In this document: positions 10,861 through 35,088 of the stretch, one piece after another
Position numbering within the stretch: position 1 is the first letter of the stretch
How the letters are laid out: each line of letters starts with the position of its first letter
Virus record (IMG/VR): IMGVR_UViG_2579779034_000011
Span: 1 to 49,804 of that record
Direction: 5' to 3' (one strand)
From: a virus
Taxonomy: Duplodnaviria > Heunggongvirae > Uroviricota > Caudoviricetes
DNA: 49,804 nucleotides
Made by a program: the position numbers and the translations under genes
The notes under the pieces: model-generated
What the model was told of the DNA's origin: nothing
The model's input: the letters and a program-made list of their open reading frames with translations, nothing else
The model's database searches: none

Positions 10861-11034
10861 TTAAGCGGCGTCGGTGAATTCAAATAAAAAACCGGCTTGC
10901 GCCGGCTCTCTCATCTTTCTGTCTACCCATGCTGATATCGATGGCATTGGCTTTACGCGTTGGCGAATAATCATTTCTGCCGGAAGAATGCCGGGATTGT
11001 ATGCAAGTCCTCTCATGGTAAATTCCTCAGTCAT
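10861..11034 (-). CDS. hypothetical protein (start taken at internal Met)
   Basis: start overlaps the upstream gene's stop in the early-left operon. Confidence 0.35.
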
Positions 11035-11320
11035 TACTGATAGCGCCATAACGTGAGCGGTAATTACGCAGGCGCGGGTCAATTTCAGGGAAGTGGGTAT
11101 ATGTGGCTTTGCGGAATGGTCGGATTGATGTCTGGTAAATTCGCTCGCGCTCTTCTTTCTCTGCAAGCCATATACAATGGCGAAATTCCTTTTCCTCTTT
11201 CGTTTCCTGCGGTAGCGACATTATCCGATCGTAGTTTTTTCTGAATTTATCCAGCACCTCCGATACGGAATTGCCGGAACAGCGGCGCGGGTCATCCGCA
11301 CCATACAGAGGCGCTGGCAT
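11027..11320 (-). CDS. hypothetical early-left protein
   Basis: 97-aa ORF directly downstream of ssb on the same strand. Confidence 0.5.
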
Positions 11321-11333
11321 GATTTTCTCCTGA

Positions 11334-11840
11334 TTAAATTGCGTGAATAGCGTGACGAGGGAAGGGGAGAGTTACTGGTGCAAAGGGTATATCGTCGTCA
11401 AAATCCATCGGAGGTTCGTTGTGTTGTGCTGGTGATGATTGCTGCTGTGGCTTCTGTGATTGCCTTCTGGATGCTTGTTGTTTGCTGTCGCCAATGCCGC
11501 CAAGCATTTGCATCACACCATTAATTCCGACATGAACCTCGGTTGTGTAACGGTCTTGCCCTGACTGGTCTTTCCACTTTCTGGTTCTCAGCATTCCCTC
11601 GAAATAAATCTGATCACCTTTTTTCACATACTGCCCCACGACCTCAGCCAGTTTCCCGGATACAGCAACACGATGCCATTCAGTCAATTCCTTTTGCTCG
11701 CCAGTATTTTTATCTCGCCATTGTTCTGACGTGGCTATTGTCAGGTTAGCGAACGCTGTTCCTGATGGTGAGTATCGAACTTCCGGGTCTTGTCCTACCC
11801 GACCAAGGATAATCACCTTATTTACGCCTCTGCTTGCCAT
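11334..11840 (-). CDS. ssb: single-stranded DNA-binding protein
   Basis: OB-fold SSB N-terminus ([23 protein letters not shown]), Gly/Gln-rich linker, acidic C-terminal DDDIPF tail. Confidence 0.9.
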
Positions 11841-12548
11841 TTATGCCGCCTGTTTTAGTTCGTTAACTCTGATGTTCATTACCTGAACGCATTTAGCCTG
11901 CGCCTCCTCGTTGCCAGCCATTAATTGCCAGTCACGCTGATAACGCTCGATGAGTTTTTTCTTGTCAGTTTCTGTTGACGCATAATCGCTGAAGTCTTTC
12001 AGGATTTGTTCGCAGTCAACCAATGGAGATTTCTGGTTGGTATTTTCTGGTGATGGTTTGTTATCTGATGCTGGGATTGCCCAGCCCGGCAGCGATGGAG
12101 GGAGCCAGTAAAATCCTGTTCCATCCTTCAGTTTTGCCCTGTGCCACCCCTGCTTTTTATCGGGAGATGTTTGTGCGAAACCTTCCTCAAGGTTATACAG
12201 ATACCGACCGATTCCCCACTGAACGGCAGCGCGCTTCATTGCACCGGAACGACCACCTTTGACGGCTTCTACCTGCGTGTTTTCAGCAGCATCCCATTTG
12301 GTTACCCATTCGGAATCAATCTTTATTGATATGCCGCATTCAACGCCGCCGTTGTTGGGAATATCGCGGTATTCATTGCGCCATCCTGCTTTGCCGCAAA
12401 CATCGTCCAGGCGTTTCATGATTGCCCGGTTCGTGACATAAGCCAGCACCATAGCCCACACCTTGCCATCGCGTGTTTTACCGCTTTGCTGTATTCGCCA
12501 TTCGATATCTTCAGGGCTGAATGGCTCATCGAATTTATTCAAATCCAT
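11841..12548 (-). CDS. Rad52-like single-strand annealing recombinase
   Basis: 235 aa; AVQWGIGRYLY motif; abuts ssb. Confidence 0.7.
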   Translation of the reverse strand: MDLNKFDEPFSPEDIEWRIQQSGKTRDGKVWAMVLAYVTNRAIMKRLDDVCGKAGWRNEYRDIPNNGGVECGISIKIDSEWVTKWDAAENTQVEAVKGGRSGAMKRAAVQWGIGRYLYNLEEGFAQTSPDKKQGWHRAKLKDGTGFYWLPPSLPGWAIPASDNKPSPENTNQKSPLVDCEQILKDFSDYASTETDKKKLIERYQRDWQLMAGNEEAQAKCVQVMNIRVNELKQAA

Positions 12549-12635
12549 AATTCACCTCAGAATGGACACGGCCCAAGGAAATAACGCTGATTTAATACTT
12601 CAGTCTTTGCCGCATTTAAAAATACGCGAACACCT

Positions 12636-12809
12636 TCACGATCTCCCTTCTGGCGATACATTAACGCCTGCTGCGTGTACATGCGTCTCTGTAACTTGCT
12701 CTCCTTCACTGTGGTTGCAAGTGACATGAATATCTCCTTCGTTACCGATTAATTCTTTCATCTGACGAATGAATTCTTCGTCTGACCAGTTATCTGGAAA
12801 ACTCATTTT
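12636..12809 (-). CDS. hypothetical protein
   Basis: 57 aa; ATGA start/stop overlap with the kil-like gene. Confidence 0.4.
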   Translation of the reverse strand, partial: KMSFPDNWSDEEFIRQMKELIGNEGDIHVTCNHSEGEQVTETHVHAAGVNVSPEGRS

Positions 12810-12955
12810 CTGCGATACCACGGAAGGTTGATAGCTGATTTCATCGCTTTATTTGCTTCAAGCCACATTTTTGAATCACCAATAAATCTGGCTATTACTG
12901 CTTTGTTCTGTGCAGCACGAAGCATCTGGTGATTAATGGCTATTTCATTGCGCAT
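12806..12955 (-). CDS. kil: Kil-like host-killing protein
   Basis: 49 aa found by manual translation; IARFIGDSKMWLEA resembles lambda Kil; lies downstream of the cIII-like gene as in lambda. Confidence 0.5.
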
Positions 12956-13074
12956 AACGCCTCCAGTTGTTTCTTTGCTGCTCTGATTAATTGTTTAACT
13001 CGGCGTGATAATTCAGATTCGTGCGGGTAGAAAGCGGACATGACGCCGCTACCCGCGAGCTGAAAGTGCATCAT
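12940..13074 (-). CDS. cIII: CIII-like protease inhibitor
   Basis: MMHFQLAGSGVMSAFYPHESELSRRVKQL resembles lambda CIII (AIAGWPV ... PSESLLERITRKL). Confidence 0.55.
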   Translation of the reverse strand: MMHFQLAGSGVMSAFYPHESELSRRVKQLIRAAKKQLEALCAMK

Positions 13075-13149
13075 GGGTAACTCCTTATATTTGATTGCAT
13101 AACGAAAACGCCTCAAGTGAAGCGTTATTGGTATGCGGTAAAGCCGCAC

Positions 13150-13518
13150 TCAGGCGGCCTTGATAGTCATATCATCTGAATCAAATATTCCTGATGTATC
13201 GATATCGGTAATTCTTATTCCTTCGCTACCATCCATTGGAGGCCATCCTTCCTGACCATTTCCATCATTCCAGTCGAACTCACACACAACACCATATGCA
13301 TTTAAGTCGCTTGAAATTGCTATAAGCAGAGCATGTTGCGCCAGCATGATTAATACAGCATTTAATACAGAGCCGTGTTTATTGAGTCGGTATTCAGAGT
13401 CTGACCAGAAATTATTAATCTGGTGAAGTTTTTCCTCTGTCATTACGTCATGGTCGATTTCAATTTCTATTGATGCTTTCCAGTCGTAATCAATGATGTA
13501 TTTTTTGATGTTTGACAT
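13150..13518 (-). CDS. hypothetical early-left accessory protein (acidic C-terminus)
   Basis: 122-aa ORF between the N and cIII genes. Confidence 0.55.
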   Translation of the reverse strand: MSNIKKYIIDYDWKASIEIEIDHDVMTEEKLHQINNFWSDSEYRLNKHGSVLNAVLIMLAQHALLIAISSDLNAYGVVCEFDWNDGNGQEGWPPMDGSEGIRITDIDTSGIFDSDDMTIKAA

Positions 13519-13659
13519 CTGTTCATATCCTCACAGATAAAAAATCGCCCTCACATTGGAGGGCAAAGAAGATTTCCAATAATCAGAACAAGTCGGCTCC
13601 TGTTTAGTTACGAGCGACATTGCTCCGTGTATTCACTCGTTGGAATGAATACACAGTGC

Positions 13660-13848
13660 TTATTCGTCATGCATTTCAGGTAATTCTTCGTATTCGACTC
13701 CCCATACGAGTTTACACCAAGTGACTCGCTCATATCTTTTACAAAAATCAGACCACATAACTTGTGTTCCATCATGGTTTGTTATTACTTCTGTAATATC
13801 ACCAACACTAACAAAACTGGTATTAGAAGCAGTTATTTTTACTTTCAT
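13660..13848 (-). CDS. hypothetical protein
   Basis: 62-aa ORF in the early-left operon. Confidence 0.4.
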   Translation of the reverse strand: MKVKITASNTSFVSVGDITEVITNHDGTQVMWSDFCKRYERVTWCKLVWGVEYEELPEMHDE

Positions 13849-14144
13849 TACTTATCCCCAAGAGCTTTTCTGATTGCTGCGAGACCTTTATTAACAGCTC
13901 CATACCATTCTGGATATGTTGTCGTTGTTCTATTTTTGGTTTGCTTAAGTAATAACTGAAGTGCTTCGAGAAGGTCAGGCGCTGCCGCTATTAGATTGGC
14001 ATCTTCAATGCATTGAACTTCCTCACAGATTGCAATATACGAACGCCAGCCTGCGCCATTTTCAAGTGAGTCTGCCTGGATGATTTTAATCTCATCGCCA
14101 TCCATCATTATTTCCCACTTACCTTCAGTACCTTTAAATTCCAT
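13848..14144 (-). CDS. hypothetical protein
   Basis: 98-aa ORF; stop and start abut neighbouring genes. Confidence 0.5.
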   Translation of the reverse strand: MEFKGTEGKWEIMMDGDEIKIIQADSLENGAGWRSYIAICEEVQCIEDANLIAAAPDLLEALQLLLKQTKNRTTTTYPEWYGAVNKGLAAIRKALGDK

Positions 14145-14181
14145 GTTAGCCTCTGTTGTTTATGCCAAAAATAAAGGCCGA

Positions 14182-14505
14182 CTATTCGGCCTTATCTACA
14201 TTCCTGAACCAAACGCAGATCGGACCGTCTTCTGTATCGTGAATCGAACCGACAAACCATCCTTCTCCATCTGGCATGCTTGGCTCCCATCCACTGATGT
14301 TTTGATTCCCATCTTCAAAATACGCGTCAATTACCGTTTGATTGTTGTCGTTTTCCATTTCAACAATTGATGATTCAATGCCATGCTGCTTGCAGAAAGA
14401 TCTGAACTCATCAACTGAAATTACCTCTCTATCCCCAAACAGGTTGGCGTATTCTGGGTGCGTCCAGTAGCCATCCTCGCTTCGCTCTACTACTAATGCT
14501 TCCAT
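14182..14505 (-). CDS. hypothetical acidic protein
   Basis: 107-aa ORF in the early-left operon. Confidence 0.5.
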   Translation of the reverse strand: MEALVVERSEDGYWTHPEYANLFGDREVISVDEFRSFCKQHGIESSIVEMENDNNQTVIDAYFEDGNQNISGWEPSMPDGEGWFVGSIHDTEDGPICVWFRNVDKAE

Positions 14506-14560
14506 ATCTCACCTCAAATAAGTGGTTTGCTGCGAAAAAGTAAAACAAGGATACTCACTT

Positions 14561-14830
14561 CTATTTGTCATCGTGTAAGCGACGCAGGTTATTAACTCGC
14601 GGCCAGTAATATTTTGGCTTGGCACGAGATCCGGGTCTTGGGCCTACACAAACTATATAGCTCTCTTCTTTCCTCGGAAGGCCAGGTGCATCTAGCAGAC
14701 GGCCTAGTTCGAATTTTTTTACGTTGACACCAGGAGGAATCACCTCGACGATAAACCCGATTTTTACCTTCGTTACACCGTTTGATGAGCTTGACCATTT
14801 AACTTCATCGTTCAATTTGAATTTCATCAT
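14561..14830 (-). CDS. hypothetical protein (start taken at MMKFKL)
   Basis: ORF directly downstream of N. Confidence 0.45.
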   Translation of the reverse strand: MMKFKLNDEVKWSSSSNGVTKVKIGFIVEVIPPGVNVKKFELGRLLDAPGLPRKEESYIVCVGPRPGSRAKPKYYWPRVNNLRRLHDDK

Positions 14831-14835
14831 TAACC

Positions 14836-15168
14836 TCAATCGTAATAAGCCGGAATTGATTTTCCGCGTTGCTTCTGGCGGCCTGAGCATGTCACTCCCA
14901 TTTCACTGCGTGGCTTGCTGTACCATGTGCGCTGATTCTTGCGCTCAATACGTTGCAGGTTGCTTTCAATCTGTTCGTGGTATTCAGCCAGCACTGTAAG
15001 GTCTATCGGATTCAGTGCGCTTTCTACTCGTGATTTCGGTTTGCGATTCAGCGAGAGAATAGGGCGGTTAACTGGCTTTGCGCTTACCCCAACCAACAGG
15101 GGATTTGCTGCTTTCCATTGAGCCTGTTTCTCTGCGCGACGTTCGCGGCGGCGTGTTTGTGCATCCAT
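14836..15168 (-). CDS. N: antitermination protein N
   Basis: MDAQTRRRERRAEKQAQWKAANPLLVGVSAKPVNRP ... matches lambda N as I recall it. Confidence 0.9.
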   Translation of the reverse strand: MDAQTRRRERRAEKQAQWKAANPLLVGVSAKPVNRPILSLNRKPKSRVESALNPIDLTVLAEYHEQIESNLQRIERKNQRTWYSKPRSEMGVTCSGRQKQRGKSIPAYYD

Positions 15169-15436
15169 CTGGATTCTCCTGTCAGTTAGCTTTGGTGGTG
15201 TGGTGGCTGGTAGTCTAGCTCCAGCTTGTTGAGTCTCATTCGGAGGGGTATAACCGGCACCCCAGCGATTTTTCCATGCGACAACGTGCGCGTTATGGCG
15301 GCCTTATCGCCCGCGGCTCCCCATCTCGTCCACGCTATTGCTAGCGTTGGGAGCGCTTCACCGCTCAACAGTAGGTAAGCACTTGCCAGTGACTAGCTGG
15401 CTTCACCACACCCCAAAGCCTTCTGCTTTGAATGCT

Positions 15437-15468
15437 GCCCTTCTTCAGGGCTTAATTTTTAAGAGCGT
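15437..15468 (-). promoter_or_regulatory. nutL (boxA CGCTCTTA + boxB GCCCTGAAGAAGGGC)
   Basis: canonical boxA and boxB hairpin read on the minus strand upstream of N. Confidence 0.8.
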
Positions 15469-15469
15469 C

Positions 15470-15600
15470 ACCTTCATGGTGGTCAGTGCGTCCTGCTGAT
15501 GGCTAAATAGTACGATTTGTACTTTATCGAGTCAATACAAAATGTTCTAAATATAATTAGTTTTTTATAACGCTTTGTATTTAATGGGTTTATATTTTGG
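15470..15600 (-). promoter_or_regulatory. pL/oL region (operators not resolved)
   Basis: position between the cI terminator and nutL; near-palindrome AGTACGATTTGTACT. Confidence 0.4.
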
Positions 15601-15609
15601 AAAAAGAAA

Positions 15610-15635
15610 ACCCGACGCTAAGGTCGGGTTATTGT
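15610..15635 (-). terminator. terminator-like hairpin downstream of cI
   Basis: inverted repeat CCCGAC/GTCGGG with a T run on the minus strand. Confidence 0.5.
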
Positions 15636-15660
15636 TGTGTGTTTTAGAGTGGTGAGGCTG

Positions 15661-16320
15661 TTAACTAAATGTCTCTTCAGGCCACTGGCTGGCGATAACT
15701 TTCCCTACTACGGAACAGCTATCATTGCATGGAATCATTGGATATTGCGGGTTTAGTGGCTGTAGGAACACCTGACCGCTATCCCTGATCAGTTTCTTGA
15801 AGGTAAACTCGTCACCACCAAGTCTGGCTATGCAGAAATCACCTGGCTCAACAGCCTGCTCAGGGTCAACGAGAATTAACATCCCGTCAGGAAAGCTTGG
15901 CTTGGATCCTGTTGGCGCGGTCATGGAATTACCTTCAACTTCAAGCCAAAACGCACAATCACTGGCTTTTTTGGTTGTGCTGACCCATCTCTCCGCATCA
16001 CCTTTGGTAAAGGTTCTAAGCTCAGGCGAGAACATCCCGGCCTGAACATGAGAAAAAACAGGGTACTCATATTGTTTTTTAACGGGGGCAGATGAGTATT
16101 CGCCAACAGGTGAAAATGTACCGTCGTGGTTGAATGAGACATTATCAATACCAAGGTATTTAAACACCACACCAATCTCGTCAAGAGATGGATGACGAGA
16201 TCCGCGCAACCAGTGACCAATTCCACCCTGCGTCATACCAAGCTCTTCAGCTAACTTCTCTTGAGTTATGCCGAGCTCTTTCATTCTGGATCTAGCCAGT
16301 TCATACCATTTCATTTTCAT
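15661..16320 (-). CDS. cI: CI repressor (HTH plus S24 LexA-like autopeptidase domain)
   Basis: C-terminal about 130 aa near-identical to lambda cI ([21 protein letters not shown] ... EGNSM ... [13 protein letters not shown]); N-terminal DNA-binding domain differs; start chosen at MKMKWYE to leave about 110 bp of operator. Confidence 0.9.
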
Positions 16321-16431
16321 ACCCTTATTATTACGCTCTGTACTAAAACCATCCATGCACAAGATGTATTTTTTGTTTGCATTCTAAAAGTACATATCGT
16401 ATTATTGTTTCATGGTTACTATGGAGGGCAT
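16321..16431. promoter_or_regulatory. divergent PRM/PR operator region
   Basis: intergenic between divergent cI and cro; contains AGTAC/GTACT half-site-like repeats. Confidence 0.5.
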
Positions 16432-16647
16432 ATGAGCAACCTACGAAAATATCGAGAGTCACTGAATATCTCTCAAACAACACTTGCTAAGGCAGTTGGA
16501 TGCACACAGGGAGCTATCGGACATTGGGAATCTGGTCGTCGCTTCCCAGACCTTAAAACATGCCGCGCTCTTGTTGCATGCCTAAACAAGTTAGGCGCAA
16601 AAGTCAGTCTTGATGACGTGTTCCCTCCGGAACACAAAGCCGCTTAA
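16432..16647 (+). CDS. cro: Cro-like repressor (HTH)
   Basis: 71 aa; helix-turn-helix ISQTTLAKAVGCTQGAIGHWESG; divergent from cI. Confidence 0.8.
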   Translation: MSNLRKYRESLNISQTTLAKAVGCTQGAIGHWESGRRFPDLKTCRALVACLNKLGAKVSLDDVFPPEHKAA

Positions 16648-16655
16648 GACATTCC

Positions 16656-16687
16656 CGCTCTTACACATTCCAGCCCTGAAAAAGGGC
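16656..16687 (+). promoter_or_regulatory. nutR (boxA CGCTCTTA + boxB GCCCTGAAAAAGGGC)
   Basis: canonical boxA/boxB immediately after cro. Confidence 0.8.
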
Positions 16688-33793: not shown

Positions 33794-35088
33794 TGGCATT
33801 AAATGAAGGTCAACTGGTCACGTATGCTCTGGATGAAATCATCGAAACCGTCCAGAACCTGACGCCAATGGCGTCCAAAGTGACAAAATACACCCCTCCG
33901 GCAGAATCCATGCAACGTTCAAGCAACACCGTGTGGATGCCTGTTGAGCAGGAAGCGCCAACTCAGACTGGCTGGGATTTAACTGGCAACGCAACCGGGA
34001 TTCTGGAACTCTCCGTAAAATGCAACATGGGCGATCCGGATAACGATTTCTTCGAGCTTCGTGCAGATGACCTGCGTGATGAGCGTTCTTACCGTCGCCG
34101 CATCCAGGCATCCGCCAAAAAACTGGCGAATAACATTGAGTCAGCAATTGCCAAACAGGCAACCGAAATGGGCTCACTTGTTGTTCACGATACCCGCGCA
34201 ATTGGTCCATCTACTGGCCTGTCTGGCTGGGATTTTGTGTCTGATGCAGAGCGCCTGATGTTCTCCCGTGAGCTAAACCGCGATATGGGCATCAGTTACT
34301 TCCTGAACCCTGACGATTACCGCAAAGCAGGCCGCAACCTGGTAGATGGTGACATCTTTGGGCGCGTTCCTGAAGACGCGTATCGCAACGGTACTATTCA
34401 GCGTCAGATTGCTGGCTTTGATGAAATTCTTCGCTCACCGAAACTTCCGGCAGTTACCAAGTCAACCGCTACTGGTGTAACTGTTTTTGGTGCGCAGAAG
34501 TTTAAGCCGCAGGCATACACCCTTGATACCGATGGTAACAAAGAGAACGTCGATAACCGTGTTGCAACGGTGACCGTATCCTCCACCACCGGATTTAAGC
34601 GCGGCGACAAAATCAGCTTCACTGGTGTGAAATTCCTGTCTCAGATGGCGAAGAACGTGCTGACTGATGATGCGACTTTCTCAATCACCCGTGTGATCGA
34701 TGGTACTCACATCGAAATCACGCCGAAGCCGATTGCGCTGGATGACGCGTCACTGACAAAAGAAGAGAAGGCTTACGCTAACGTAAACACCTCTCTTGCT
34801 GATAACACTCCGGTAAACGTTCTGAACGTGGCAACAACCACCGCTAACGTGTTCTGGGCTGATGACTCAATCCGCCTGCTGTCTCAGCCGATCCCGGTAA
34901 CCCATGAACTGTTTGCTGGTATGAAAACGTCTTCCTTCAGCATTCCTGGTATTGGTGTTAACGGCATCTTCGCAACGCAGGGTGATATCAACACTCTGTC
35001 TGGTAAGTGCCGTATTGCTGTGTGGTATTCAGCATGTGCTGTACGACCAGAGGCAATTGGTGTTGGTCTGCCTAACCAGACCGCGTGA
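33793..35088 (+). CDS. 5: coat protein (P22 gp5-like)
   Basis: 431 aa; MALNEGQ start; matches P22 gp5. Confidence 0.95.

Follow-up and report, generated by a model that had tools for sequence, protein, structure and literature searches.

In phage lambda, the segment of the early-left (PL) operon that starts at the antitermination gene N carries, in order, sieB, orf28, ral, the small RNA (sRNA) PreS with its terminator tL2a, ea10 and cIII (J02459 33299-35438). A ral-containing accessory region is also home to orf184, a gene described as widespread among coliphages, which was conditionally lethal in ECOR59 in the accessory-gene screen of Silas et al.; transposon suppressors of this lethality mapped to gop and beta, and cell death was recreated in a laboratory strain when cloned gop-beta-cII was combined with orf184 (bioRxiv 10.1101/2023.04.06.535777). 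The gop-beta-cII locus of P4 encodes an anti-phage system that acts on lambda and P1 (PMC9122126). Here we describe the corresponding segment in the IMG/VR record IMGVR_UViG_2579779034_000011, of which positions 1 to 49,804 (49,804 nucleotides, hereafter the window) were analysed. Between N and cIII (13150-14830) this segment contains five minus-strand open reading frames (ORFs) of 89, 107, 98, 62 and 122 amino acids (orf89, orf107, orf98, orf62 and ea10), with coordinates and sizes as given in an earlier, sequence-only reading of the window.

The locus shares its operon, strand logic and boundaries with the lambda segment, but the place of sieB-orf28-ral is taken by four unrelated ORFs (orf89, orf107, orf98 and orf62), one of which encodes a close relative of Orf184. 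An exact match to the interval was found in a complete E. coli chromosome (NZ_OZ040950.1, 1510858-1513158), where it lies within a lambdoid prophage. In our view, the interval probably represents the N-proximal, hypervariable part of the PL operon in a lambda-like E. coli prophage and encodes host-directed early effectors. In content, it brings together Ea10 and the PreS sRNA of lambda, an abortive-infection trigger known from the literature and three orphan families that are already catalogued. The locus is an ordinary example of a known accessory hotspot, in which catalogued cassettes stand in a new combination. These findings leave the current picture of lambdoid phages unchanged; their remaining value lies in a possible link between Ea10 and SPFH domains, in the target of Orf184 and in the unannotated orf89.

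The acidic protein orf107 and the abortive-infection trigger Orf184

The second cassette, orf107 (14182-14505, minus strand), matches phrog_1372 (E 4.7e-43) and encodes a protein identical at 102 of 106 residues (96%) to Orf184 of phage mEp213 (UDP0184, AFM76385.1), the sequence of which was located with the N-terminal peptide of orf107 in supplementary file 19 of the screen (bioRxiv 10.1101/2023.04.06.535777). The two proteins differ by four internal substitutions and in their last residue. Like orf107, orf184 sits in the accessory region that separates N from Ea10, although in mEp213 it apparently adjoins the PreS/Ea10 block, as judged from matched coordinates, whereas orf98 and orf62 intervene here. 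Because of the 96% identity, this allele is expected to be sensed by the toxin-antitoxin-like gop-beta-cII system of the P4 satellite, leading to abortive death in hosts that carry the system.

What orf107 does for the phage is less directly indicated. As the cell-death triggers found in the screen tend to share accessory regions with counter-defence genes (bioRxiv 10.1101/2023.04.06.535777), a host-directed or anti-defence role is plausible. The sequence-only reading had pointed out that this early accessory position often holds anti-defence genes, a view favoured by the published ral-containing accessory region and by the triggering of gop-beta-cII by Orf184. In contrast, the genes that sensitised hosts in the same screen, raising phage plaquing, include Ocr, Ral and ArdA but not Orf184 (bioRxiv 10.1101/2023.04.06.535777; PMC12373910). 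The gene set of that screen does not include Ea10. That orf107 is an anti-defence factor is a real possibility that falls somewhat short of probable, and for each of the other four proteins the chance is lower. The broader idea of that reading, of an early, variable and probably host- or immunity-directed region, is reasonable.

Members of the orf107 family are conserved across Enterobacterales, and relatives at 29-46% identity occur in phages of Burkholderia, Pseudomonas, Vibrio, Ralstonia and Shewanella. Two motifs are invariant (V-x-R-x-EDG-x-WTHP-x-Y and GWFxGSIHDTEDGPxC), and homologues, like those of orf89, are found in the early operons of further temperate phages. In Serratia phage Parlo (gp49) and Burkholderia phage phi1026b (gp46), the orf107 domain is fused to additional sequence, in which Pfam detected nothing. 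The protein is strongly acidic (isoelectric point (pI) 4.11, net charge -18), and this acidity is kept across the family (pI 4.05-4.60, median 4.33). Ea10, encoded at 13150-13518, is also acidic (pI 4.28, net charge -14; family median pI 4.35), such that the two ORFs singled out earlier as markedly acidic are indeed so and belong to families that share this property. Homology between the two was considered, as both contain GW-P-x-DG-EG, but was rejected after pairwise BLAST (E 0.49) and hhalign (probability 0.3%). A Pantoea sp. prophage (L108, 3995-5134) carries homologues from both families on one strand, that of Ea10 being 60% identical. The two genes are about 420 nucleotides apart, with one 88-amino-acid ORF between them, and a cIII-like ORF is located further downstream; the two acidic families can thus also occur together in another order.

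The acidity of both proteins had been interpreted as a sign of DNA mimicry, according to which orf107 and Ea10 would fill the DNA groove of type I restriction-modification enzymes (or of a RecBCD-like enzyme), as Ocr and ArdA do, and so shield unmodified phage DNA early in infection. Ocr (T7 gp0.3) and ArdA are likewise small, strongly acidic (pI about 4) and early, and the accessory region described here elsewhere holds an anti-restriction gene; orf107 is located where lambda has ral, Ea10 is abundant (PMC3961180), as stoichiometric inhibitors are, and some known anti-restriction proteins set off cell-death systems in the screen, as Orf184 did. However, Orf184 was reported with one cell-death system only (gop-beta-cII, in ECOR59) and not with those that respond to Ocr or ArdA, and the absence of Orf184 from the sensitising genes also argues against mimicry. 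Profile searches of Pfam and NCBIfam gave no match to Ocr or ArdA for any of the five ORFs, and phmmer and hmmsearch comparisons with all PDB chains (E <=10) returned unrelated proteins or nothing, with no similarity to Ocr, ArdA, ArdB/KlcA or Gam. Predicted structures likewise suggest no fold resemblance to known DNA mimics, although these are diverse in fold, so that a missing match does not in itself exclude mimicry. In addition, conservation in the orf107 family is concentrated in invariant aromatic, His and Cys residues and a single HDTEDG hairpin rather than in a distributed acidic array, while Ea10 is present in lambda alongside Ral and no restriction-alleviation role for it was found in the searchable literature. 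Of the tests run for DNA mimicry, only that of net charge came out in its favour; a high negative charge is necessary for a mimic of the Ocr/ArdA type but far from specific, and acidity alone is weak evidence. The anti-restriction mimic proposed by the sequence-only reading is therefore improbable. For orf107, our best guess is that it would bind a conserved host protein stoichiometrically rather than act, as Ocr does, on DNA-binding restriction enzymes.

Gene content and expression of the early-left operon

Each of the five ORFs matches one PHROG family over its full length (E 5e-32 to 4e-71) and is preceded by a Shine-Dalgarno-like sequence. In orf89, comparison with two 63-66%-identical homologues gave differences of 28/22/50 and 27/23/47 at the first, second and third codon positions, such that changes at third positions were about twice those at first or second positions. 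Further genes in other frames or on the opposite strand, where sieB lies in lambda, were considered and rejected, as the seven alternative-frame or plus-strand candidates in the interval had no PHROG match. Because of the PHROG matches, the invariant family motifs, the codon-position bias of orf89 and the lack of a competing PHROG-matched ORF, the five ORFs are, on sequence grounds, genuine genes. No family of the PADLOC defence models was matched at E <=0.1 by the five ORFs or the neighbouring orf56, and literature on DUF2528, Ea10 and defence, XkdD, Y8K6 and the PHROG identifiers yielded no functional data. An Rfam scan of 12000-16500 returned one chance microRNA match and nothing else.

All genes of the region are on the minus strand. 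A PL-like sigma-70 promoter (TTGACT-17-TACTAT, 15507-15535, minus strand), located by consensus scan, sits between a LexA-family repressor gene (15661-16362) and nutL, and by analogy with the lambda layout it would drive the early-left operon. The nutL site (15437-15467, minus strand), read directly from the sequence, consists of boxA CGCTCTTA and boxB GCCCTGAAGAAGGGC; the boxB match is exact (chance expectation 0.01 matches), and a boxB match for nutR is present on the plus strand at 16673-16687. We take the boxA and boxB of nutL and the boxB of nutR to be the lambda sequences. The N gene (14836-15168, minus strand) encodes a lambda-type antitermination protein (Pfam N36, E 1.6e-26; named alike by the Prokaryotic Genome Annotation Pipeline, PGAP) with 93% identity to lambda N over 106 amino acids. 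The repressor between the nut sites belongs to the LexA family and is annotated otherwise than cI, and lambda-type antitermination is thus apparently joined to a different immunity region.

At the downstream boundary, cIII (12940-13074, minus strand; Pfam cIII, E 6.4e-30), encoding the FtsH inhibitor, corresponds to a 44-amino-acid coding sequence in the PGAP annotation and is followed in transcription order by kil (12803-12955, minus strand). Both genes are of a non-lambda sequence type. The adjacent recombination module (11027-12727) encodes a 56-amino-acid phrog_1723 protein, a Rad52/Rad22-family annealing protein, a single-stranded DNA-binding protein (SSB) and a 97-amino-acid protein annotated as 'phage anti-RecBCD protein', and so differs from the exo-bet-gam module of lambda in being composed of Rad52-like, SSB and anti-RecBCD genes. 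Neither ral nor sieB was found in the whole window, with a best E of 1.7 in a tblastn search with lambda Ral, and none of the interval ORFs had a PHROG or Pfam match to Ral. The lambda mosaic junction coincides with the orf62 stop codon.

Given this arrangement, transcription would run from the PL-like promoter through nutL and N to orf89, orf107, orf98 and orf62, and then through PreS/tL2a and ea10 to cIII and kil. Expression of the ORFs would require induction or infection, after which N-antiterminated transcription would read through two internal terminator-like hairpins (14174-14193 and 13545-13566), and because expression would depend on PL and on this read-through, their products are predicted to appear early. 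These products would be small and soluble, and would target host components in the early phase of lytic growth. A promoter scan with a crude consensus detected no minus-strand promoter within 13150-14830.

The replaced lambda segment includes the superinfection-exclusion gene sieB, and prophage accessory loci often hold defence genes. The cassettes could accordingly be morons that shield the lysogen, like lambda sieB and rexAB, in which case they would be expressed from the repressed prophage and serve defence rather than counter-defence; the terminator-like hairpin on each side of orf98-orf62 gives a moron-like layout. However, the four ORFs lie on the PL strand, are packed or overlapping and had no internal minus-strand promoter in the scan, whereas lambda sieB is on the strand opposite to PL transcription. 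In addition, no PADLOC model was matched, the cassette proteins are only 62-107 amino acids long with no enzymatic domain recognised by Pfam, and Orf184 is toxic only in hosts with a sensing system, as would be the case for a phage effector. A role as morons is quite unlikely, the least likely of the readings considered, and we prefer that of early host-directed effectors expressed from PL.

Several points nevertheless weigh against early host-directed effectors. That the two hairpins (14174-14193 and 13545-13566) are read through is carried over from lambda biology, and the crude promoter scan may have missed internal promoters, from which the ORFs might be expressed in the lysogen as morons. 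No function is assigned to four of the five proteins, and the term host-directed effector therefore rests on position and analogy. For orf107, the substitutions relative to Orf184 and the different last residue could change recognition by gop-beta-cII, and the screen in which Orf184 lacked a counter-defence phenotype used limited hosts and phages.

Ea10 and PreS, the elements shared with lambda

The last of the five ORFs (13150-13518, minus strand) encodes an acidic early protein of 122 amino acids that is identical to lambda Ea10 at all 122 residues (100%) and belongs to DUF2528 (PF10800; E 1.8e-47, profile positions 1-104 of 104) and phrog_646 (E 3.8e-71). In lambda, ea10 itself lies between ral and cIII. 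The description of the five ORFs as unrelated to lambda therefore fails, and as the PreS spacer is also that of lambda, with one mismatch, what is new relative to lambda amounts to four cassettes rather than five. Ea10 is non-essential in lambda (PMC10695390) and is made abundantly from PL (PMC3961180). Its family comprises 253 clusters detected at E <=0.001 in a library of 50%-identity representatives.

A very confident structural model of Ea10 computed from 48 sequences (predicted local distance difference test (pLDDT) 96.6, predicted template modelling score (pTM) 0.88) has the order beta-beta-alpha-alpha-alpha-alpha-beta, and its fold-similarity scores against SPFH (band-7) domains fall in an ambiguous range. 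SPFH proteins (HflC, HflK, stomatin, QmcA and prohibitin) have no sequence similarity to Ea10, and in comparison with SPFH/band-7 proteins Ea10 has 122 amino acids and no visible long hydrophobic segment. No SPFH family in Pfam matched Ea10 at E <=1, and a search with the DUF2528 profile (E <=10) retrieved nothing from a library of PDB chains that does contain HflK/C and stomatin. The predicted SPFH-like alpha/beta fold is a weak lead, because there is no sequence signal and because diverged DUF2528 proteins occur in Mu-like prophages that lack a detectable cIII.

In Mu-like prophages, the genes for these diverged DUF2528 proteins (35-53% identity) belong to the early region, with Gam or DUF3164 on one side and GemA/Mor on the other. 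At five Mu-like loci (L111, L114, L120, L123 and L126), genes for an rve-type transposase and a MuB-like ATPase lie upstream of the DUF2528 gene. The Mu-like semi-essential early region resembles the lambda PL region in being early, dispensable and host-modulating, but belongs to a different phage type with different regulation, and N, cIII and PreS are absent from it. An obligate linkage of Ea10 to cIII, which would have favoured the FtsH idea, was rejected: the diverged loci with a detectable cIII were two Pantoea prophages, in which the genes are not adjacent, and most others were Mu-like or had no cIII.

This distribution bears on a further explanation, namely that the proteins, and Ea10 above all, tune host physiology or the lysis-lysogeny decision in ways unrelated to immunity. 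For example, a soluble SPFH-like Ea10 might act together with cIII on FtsH-HflKC, and the other cassettes might act on replication, division or transcription. The neighbouring elements do target host physiology (cIII acting on FtsH, kil on FtsZ/ZipA and PreS on dnaN), the Mu-like early regions in which DUF2528 lies beside Gam, DUF3164, GemA and Mor are known for host-modulating genes, and the catalogue name of the orf98 family also cites XkdD. In contrast, Ea10 lacks a sequence-level SPFH signal, diverged DUF2528 outside Enterobacterales has no link to a detectable cIII, and no experimental phenotype turned up for Ea10, which lambda can do without. We regard this explanation as unlikely, if marginally less so than DNA mimicry or a moron role. 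A bolder proposal would combine the two acidic families: the Ea10-like and Orf184-like proteins, abundant, constitutively acidic and early, might each have a new fold and neutralise a host factor that is conserved across Proteobacteria, where the target of Ea10 could be FtsH-HflKC, engaged through an SPFH-like domain together with cIII, and that of Orf184 a factor guarded by P4 gop-beta-cII. This is a long shot, on a par with DNA mimicry, but if true it would supply the function that a lambda gene has been missing for about 40 years and would establish by what logic a satellite-encoded abortive system is triggered.

Outside lambdoid prophages, the apparent distribution of Ea10 is misleading. 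A 100%-identical Ea10 was found in assemblies of Pseudoxanthomonas, Enterococcus, Paenibacillus, Bradyrhizobium, Shewanella, Kitasatospora and others (L090-L103, L107, L113 and L116), on contigs that are mostly of low coverage and in several cases about 48.4-48.5 kb long, and two lambda-sized 'plasmids' in PLSDB (Stenotrophomonas and Paenibacillus) have the same look. These occurrences in unrelated organisms are almost certainly contamination with lambda control DNA and do not indicate true hosts. The possibility that Ea10 is an anti-defence gene of plasmid leading regions was also rejected, as it occurred in only 19 plasmid records, mostly lambda-sized (about 48.5 kb) or mis-assigned replicons.

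Upstream of Ea10, the 137-nucleotide spacer differs from the lambda ral-ea10 spacer at one base (99%; about 150 nucleotides aligned). On the basis of this identity, a homologue of the PreS/LPR1 sRNA that ends at tL2a can be placed at 13538-13626 (minus strand), with an approximate 5' end set from the band of about 88 nucleotides reported for lambda (bioRxiv 10.1101/2024.10.31.621285). It lies between orf62 and Ea10, within the interval covered by the sequence-only reading, which overlooked it. The tL2a hairpin GCCCTCCAATGTGAGGGC (13545-13566) is followed by T6, and the fold of the region has a z-score of -4.2 relative to shuffled sequence; Rfam has no family for PreS/LPR1. In lambda, LPR1/PreS is an Hfq-dependent sRNA whose 3' end is the terminator tL2a, and it raises host dnaN and aids phage replication (bioRxiv 10.1101/2024.10.31.621285).

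Cassette exchange upstream of Ea10

To place the arrangement in context, 80 IMG/VR loci with a 99-100%-identical Ea10 were compared, 74 of which had full upstream sequence. On the downstream side, cIII and kil followed Ea10 in nearly all loci that extended so far, and the PreS spacer was kept (<=8 mismatches) in 66 of the 74. In contrast to these fixed elements, about 55 ORF families were present in the 1.7 kb upstream of Ea10, a count that takes in two N types, a repressor and some spurious ORFs. Among the 74 loci, ral was present in 24, orf98 in four, orf107 in two, and orf62 and orf89 in one each. Across 5,426 complete E. coli genomes, orf107 was found in 41, orf89 in 50 and the orf98-orf62 pair in 60, whereas the full arrangement was found in one, the source. 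The cassettes are independent, each being found elsewhere without the others, and the N-to-Ea10 stretch illustrates a plug-in site for single-gene cassettes.

A possible junction for such exchange lies over the orf107 stop codon, where a terminator scan identified a terminator-like hairpin with a T-tract (14174-14193, minus strand) that continues into GGCCTTTATTTTTGGCATAAAYAACAGA (to 14165). As GGCCTTTATTTTTGGCATAAAYAACAGA also follows ral in lambda (J02459 ~34060-34086), the hairpin and this sequence may be a conserved junction for cassette exchange. The orf98-orf62 pair, which lies between this junction and PreS, has the look of an insertion.

The third cassette, orf98 (13848-14144, minus strand; phrog_1273, E 5.2e-32), encodes a 98-amino-acid protein of the family PF27050 (Phage_P22_Y8K6). 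This model was not in the Pfam copy used, and orf98 was placed in the family via its homologues, for which precomputed PF27050 matches are recorded at 60-100% identity. Homologues form 167 clusters, and nearly all of those listed carry PF27050; a 98%-identical relative is named XkdD/Y8K6 family phage-associated protein by PGAP. In the family alignment, the core EDAxLIAAAPDLLEAL is kept while the N- and C-terminal parts are mosaic. No PDB relative was found for orf98, orf89 or orf62, and the latter two belong to PHROG families without an assigned function.

The first cassette, orf89 (14561-14830, minus strand; phrog_11941, E 4.7e-46), begins 5 nucleotides past the N stop codon, with GAGG before its start, and encodes a basic protein of 89 amino acids (pI 10.0). 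Its homologues, which comprise 31 clusters in Enterobacterales and share the invariant motif PGSRAKPKYYWPR, are found in other lambdoid prophages at a distance of one to three genes downstream from N. Matches to Tudor/KOW domains were weak and below threshold. A tblastn search of 50,697 sequenced phage records gave no match, and orf89 was seen in prophages and one IMG/VR contig only. The gene is unannotated in the source RefSeq record, and among the 50 carrier E. coli genomes no feature underlies the five matches listed, which reveals an annotation gap for a conserved gene straight after N.

The fourth cassette, orf62 (13660-13848, minus strand; phrog_10407, E 1.5e-45), encodes 62 amino acids, and its start overlaps the orf98 stop codon (TAATG). 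Its relatives in sequenced phages are only 50-59% identical. The closest of these are in virulent T4-like Krischvirus phages (RB49, JSE and others), Salmonella phages 9NA and SP069 and an Aeromonas phage, and the family is common to temperate and virulent phages.

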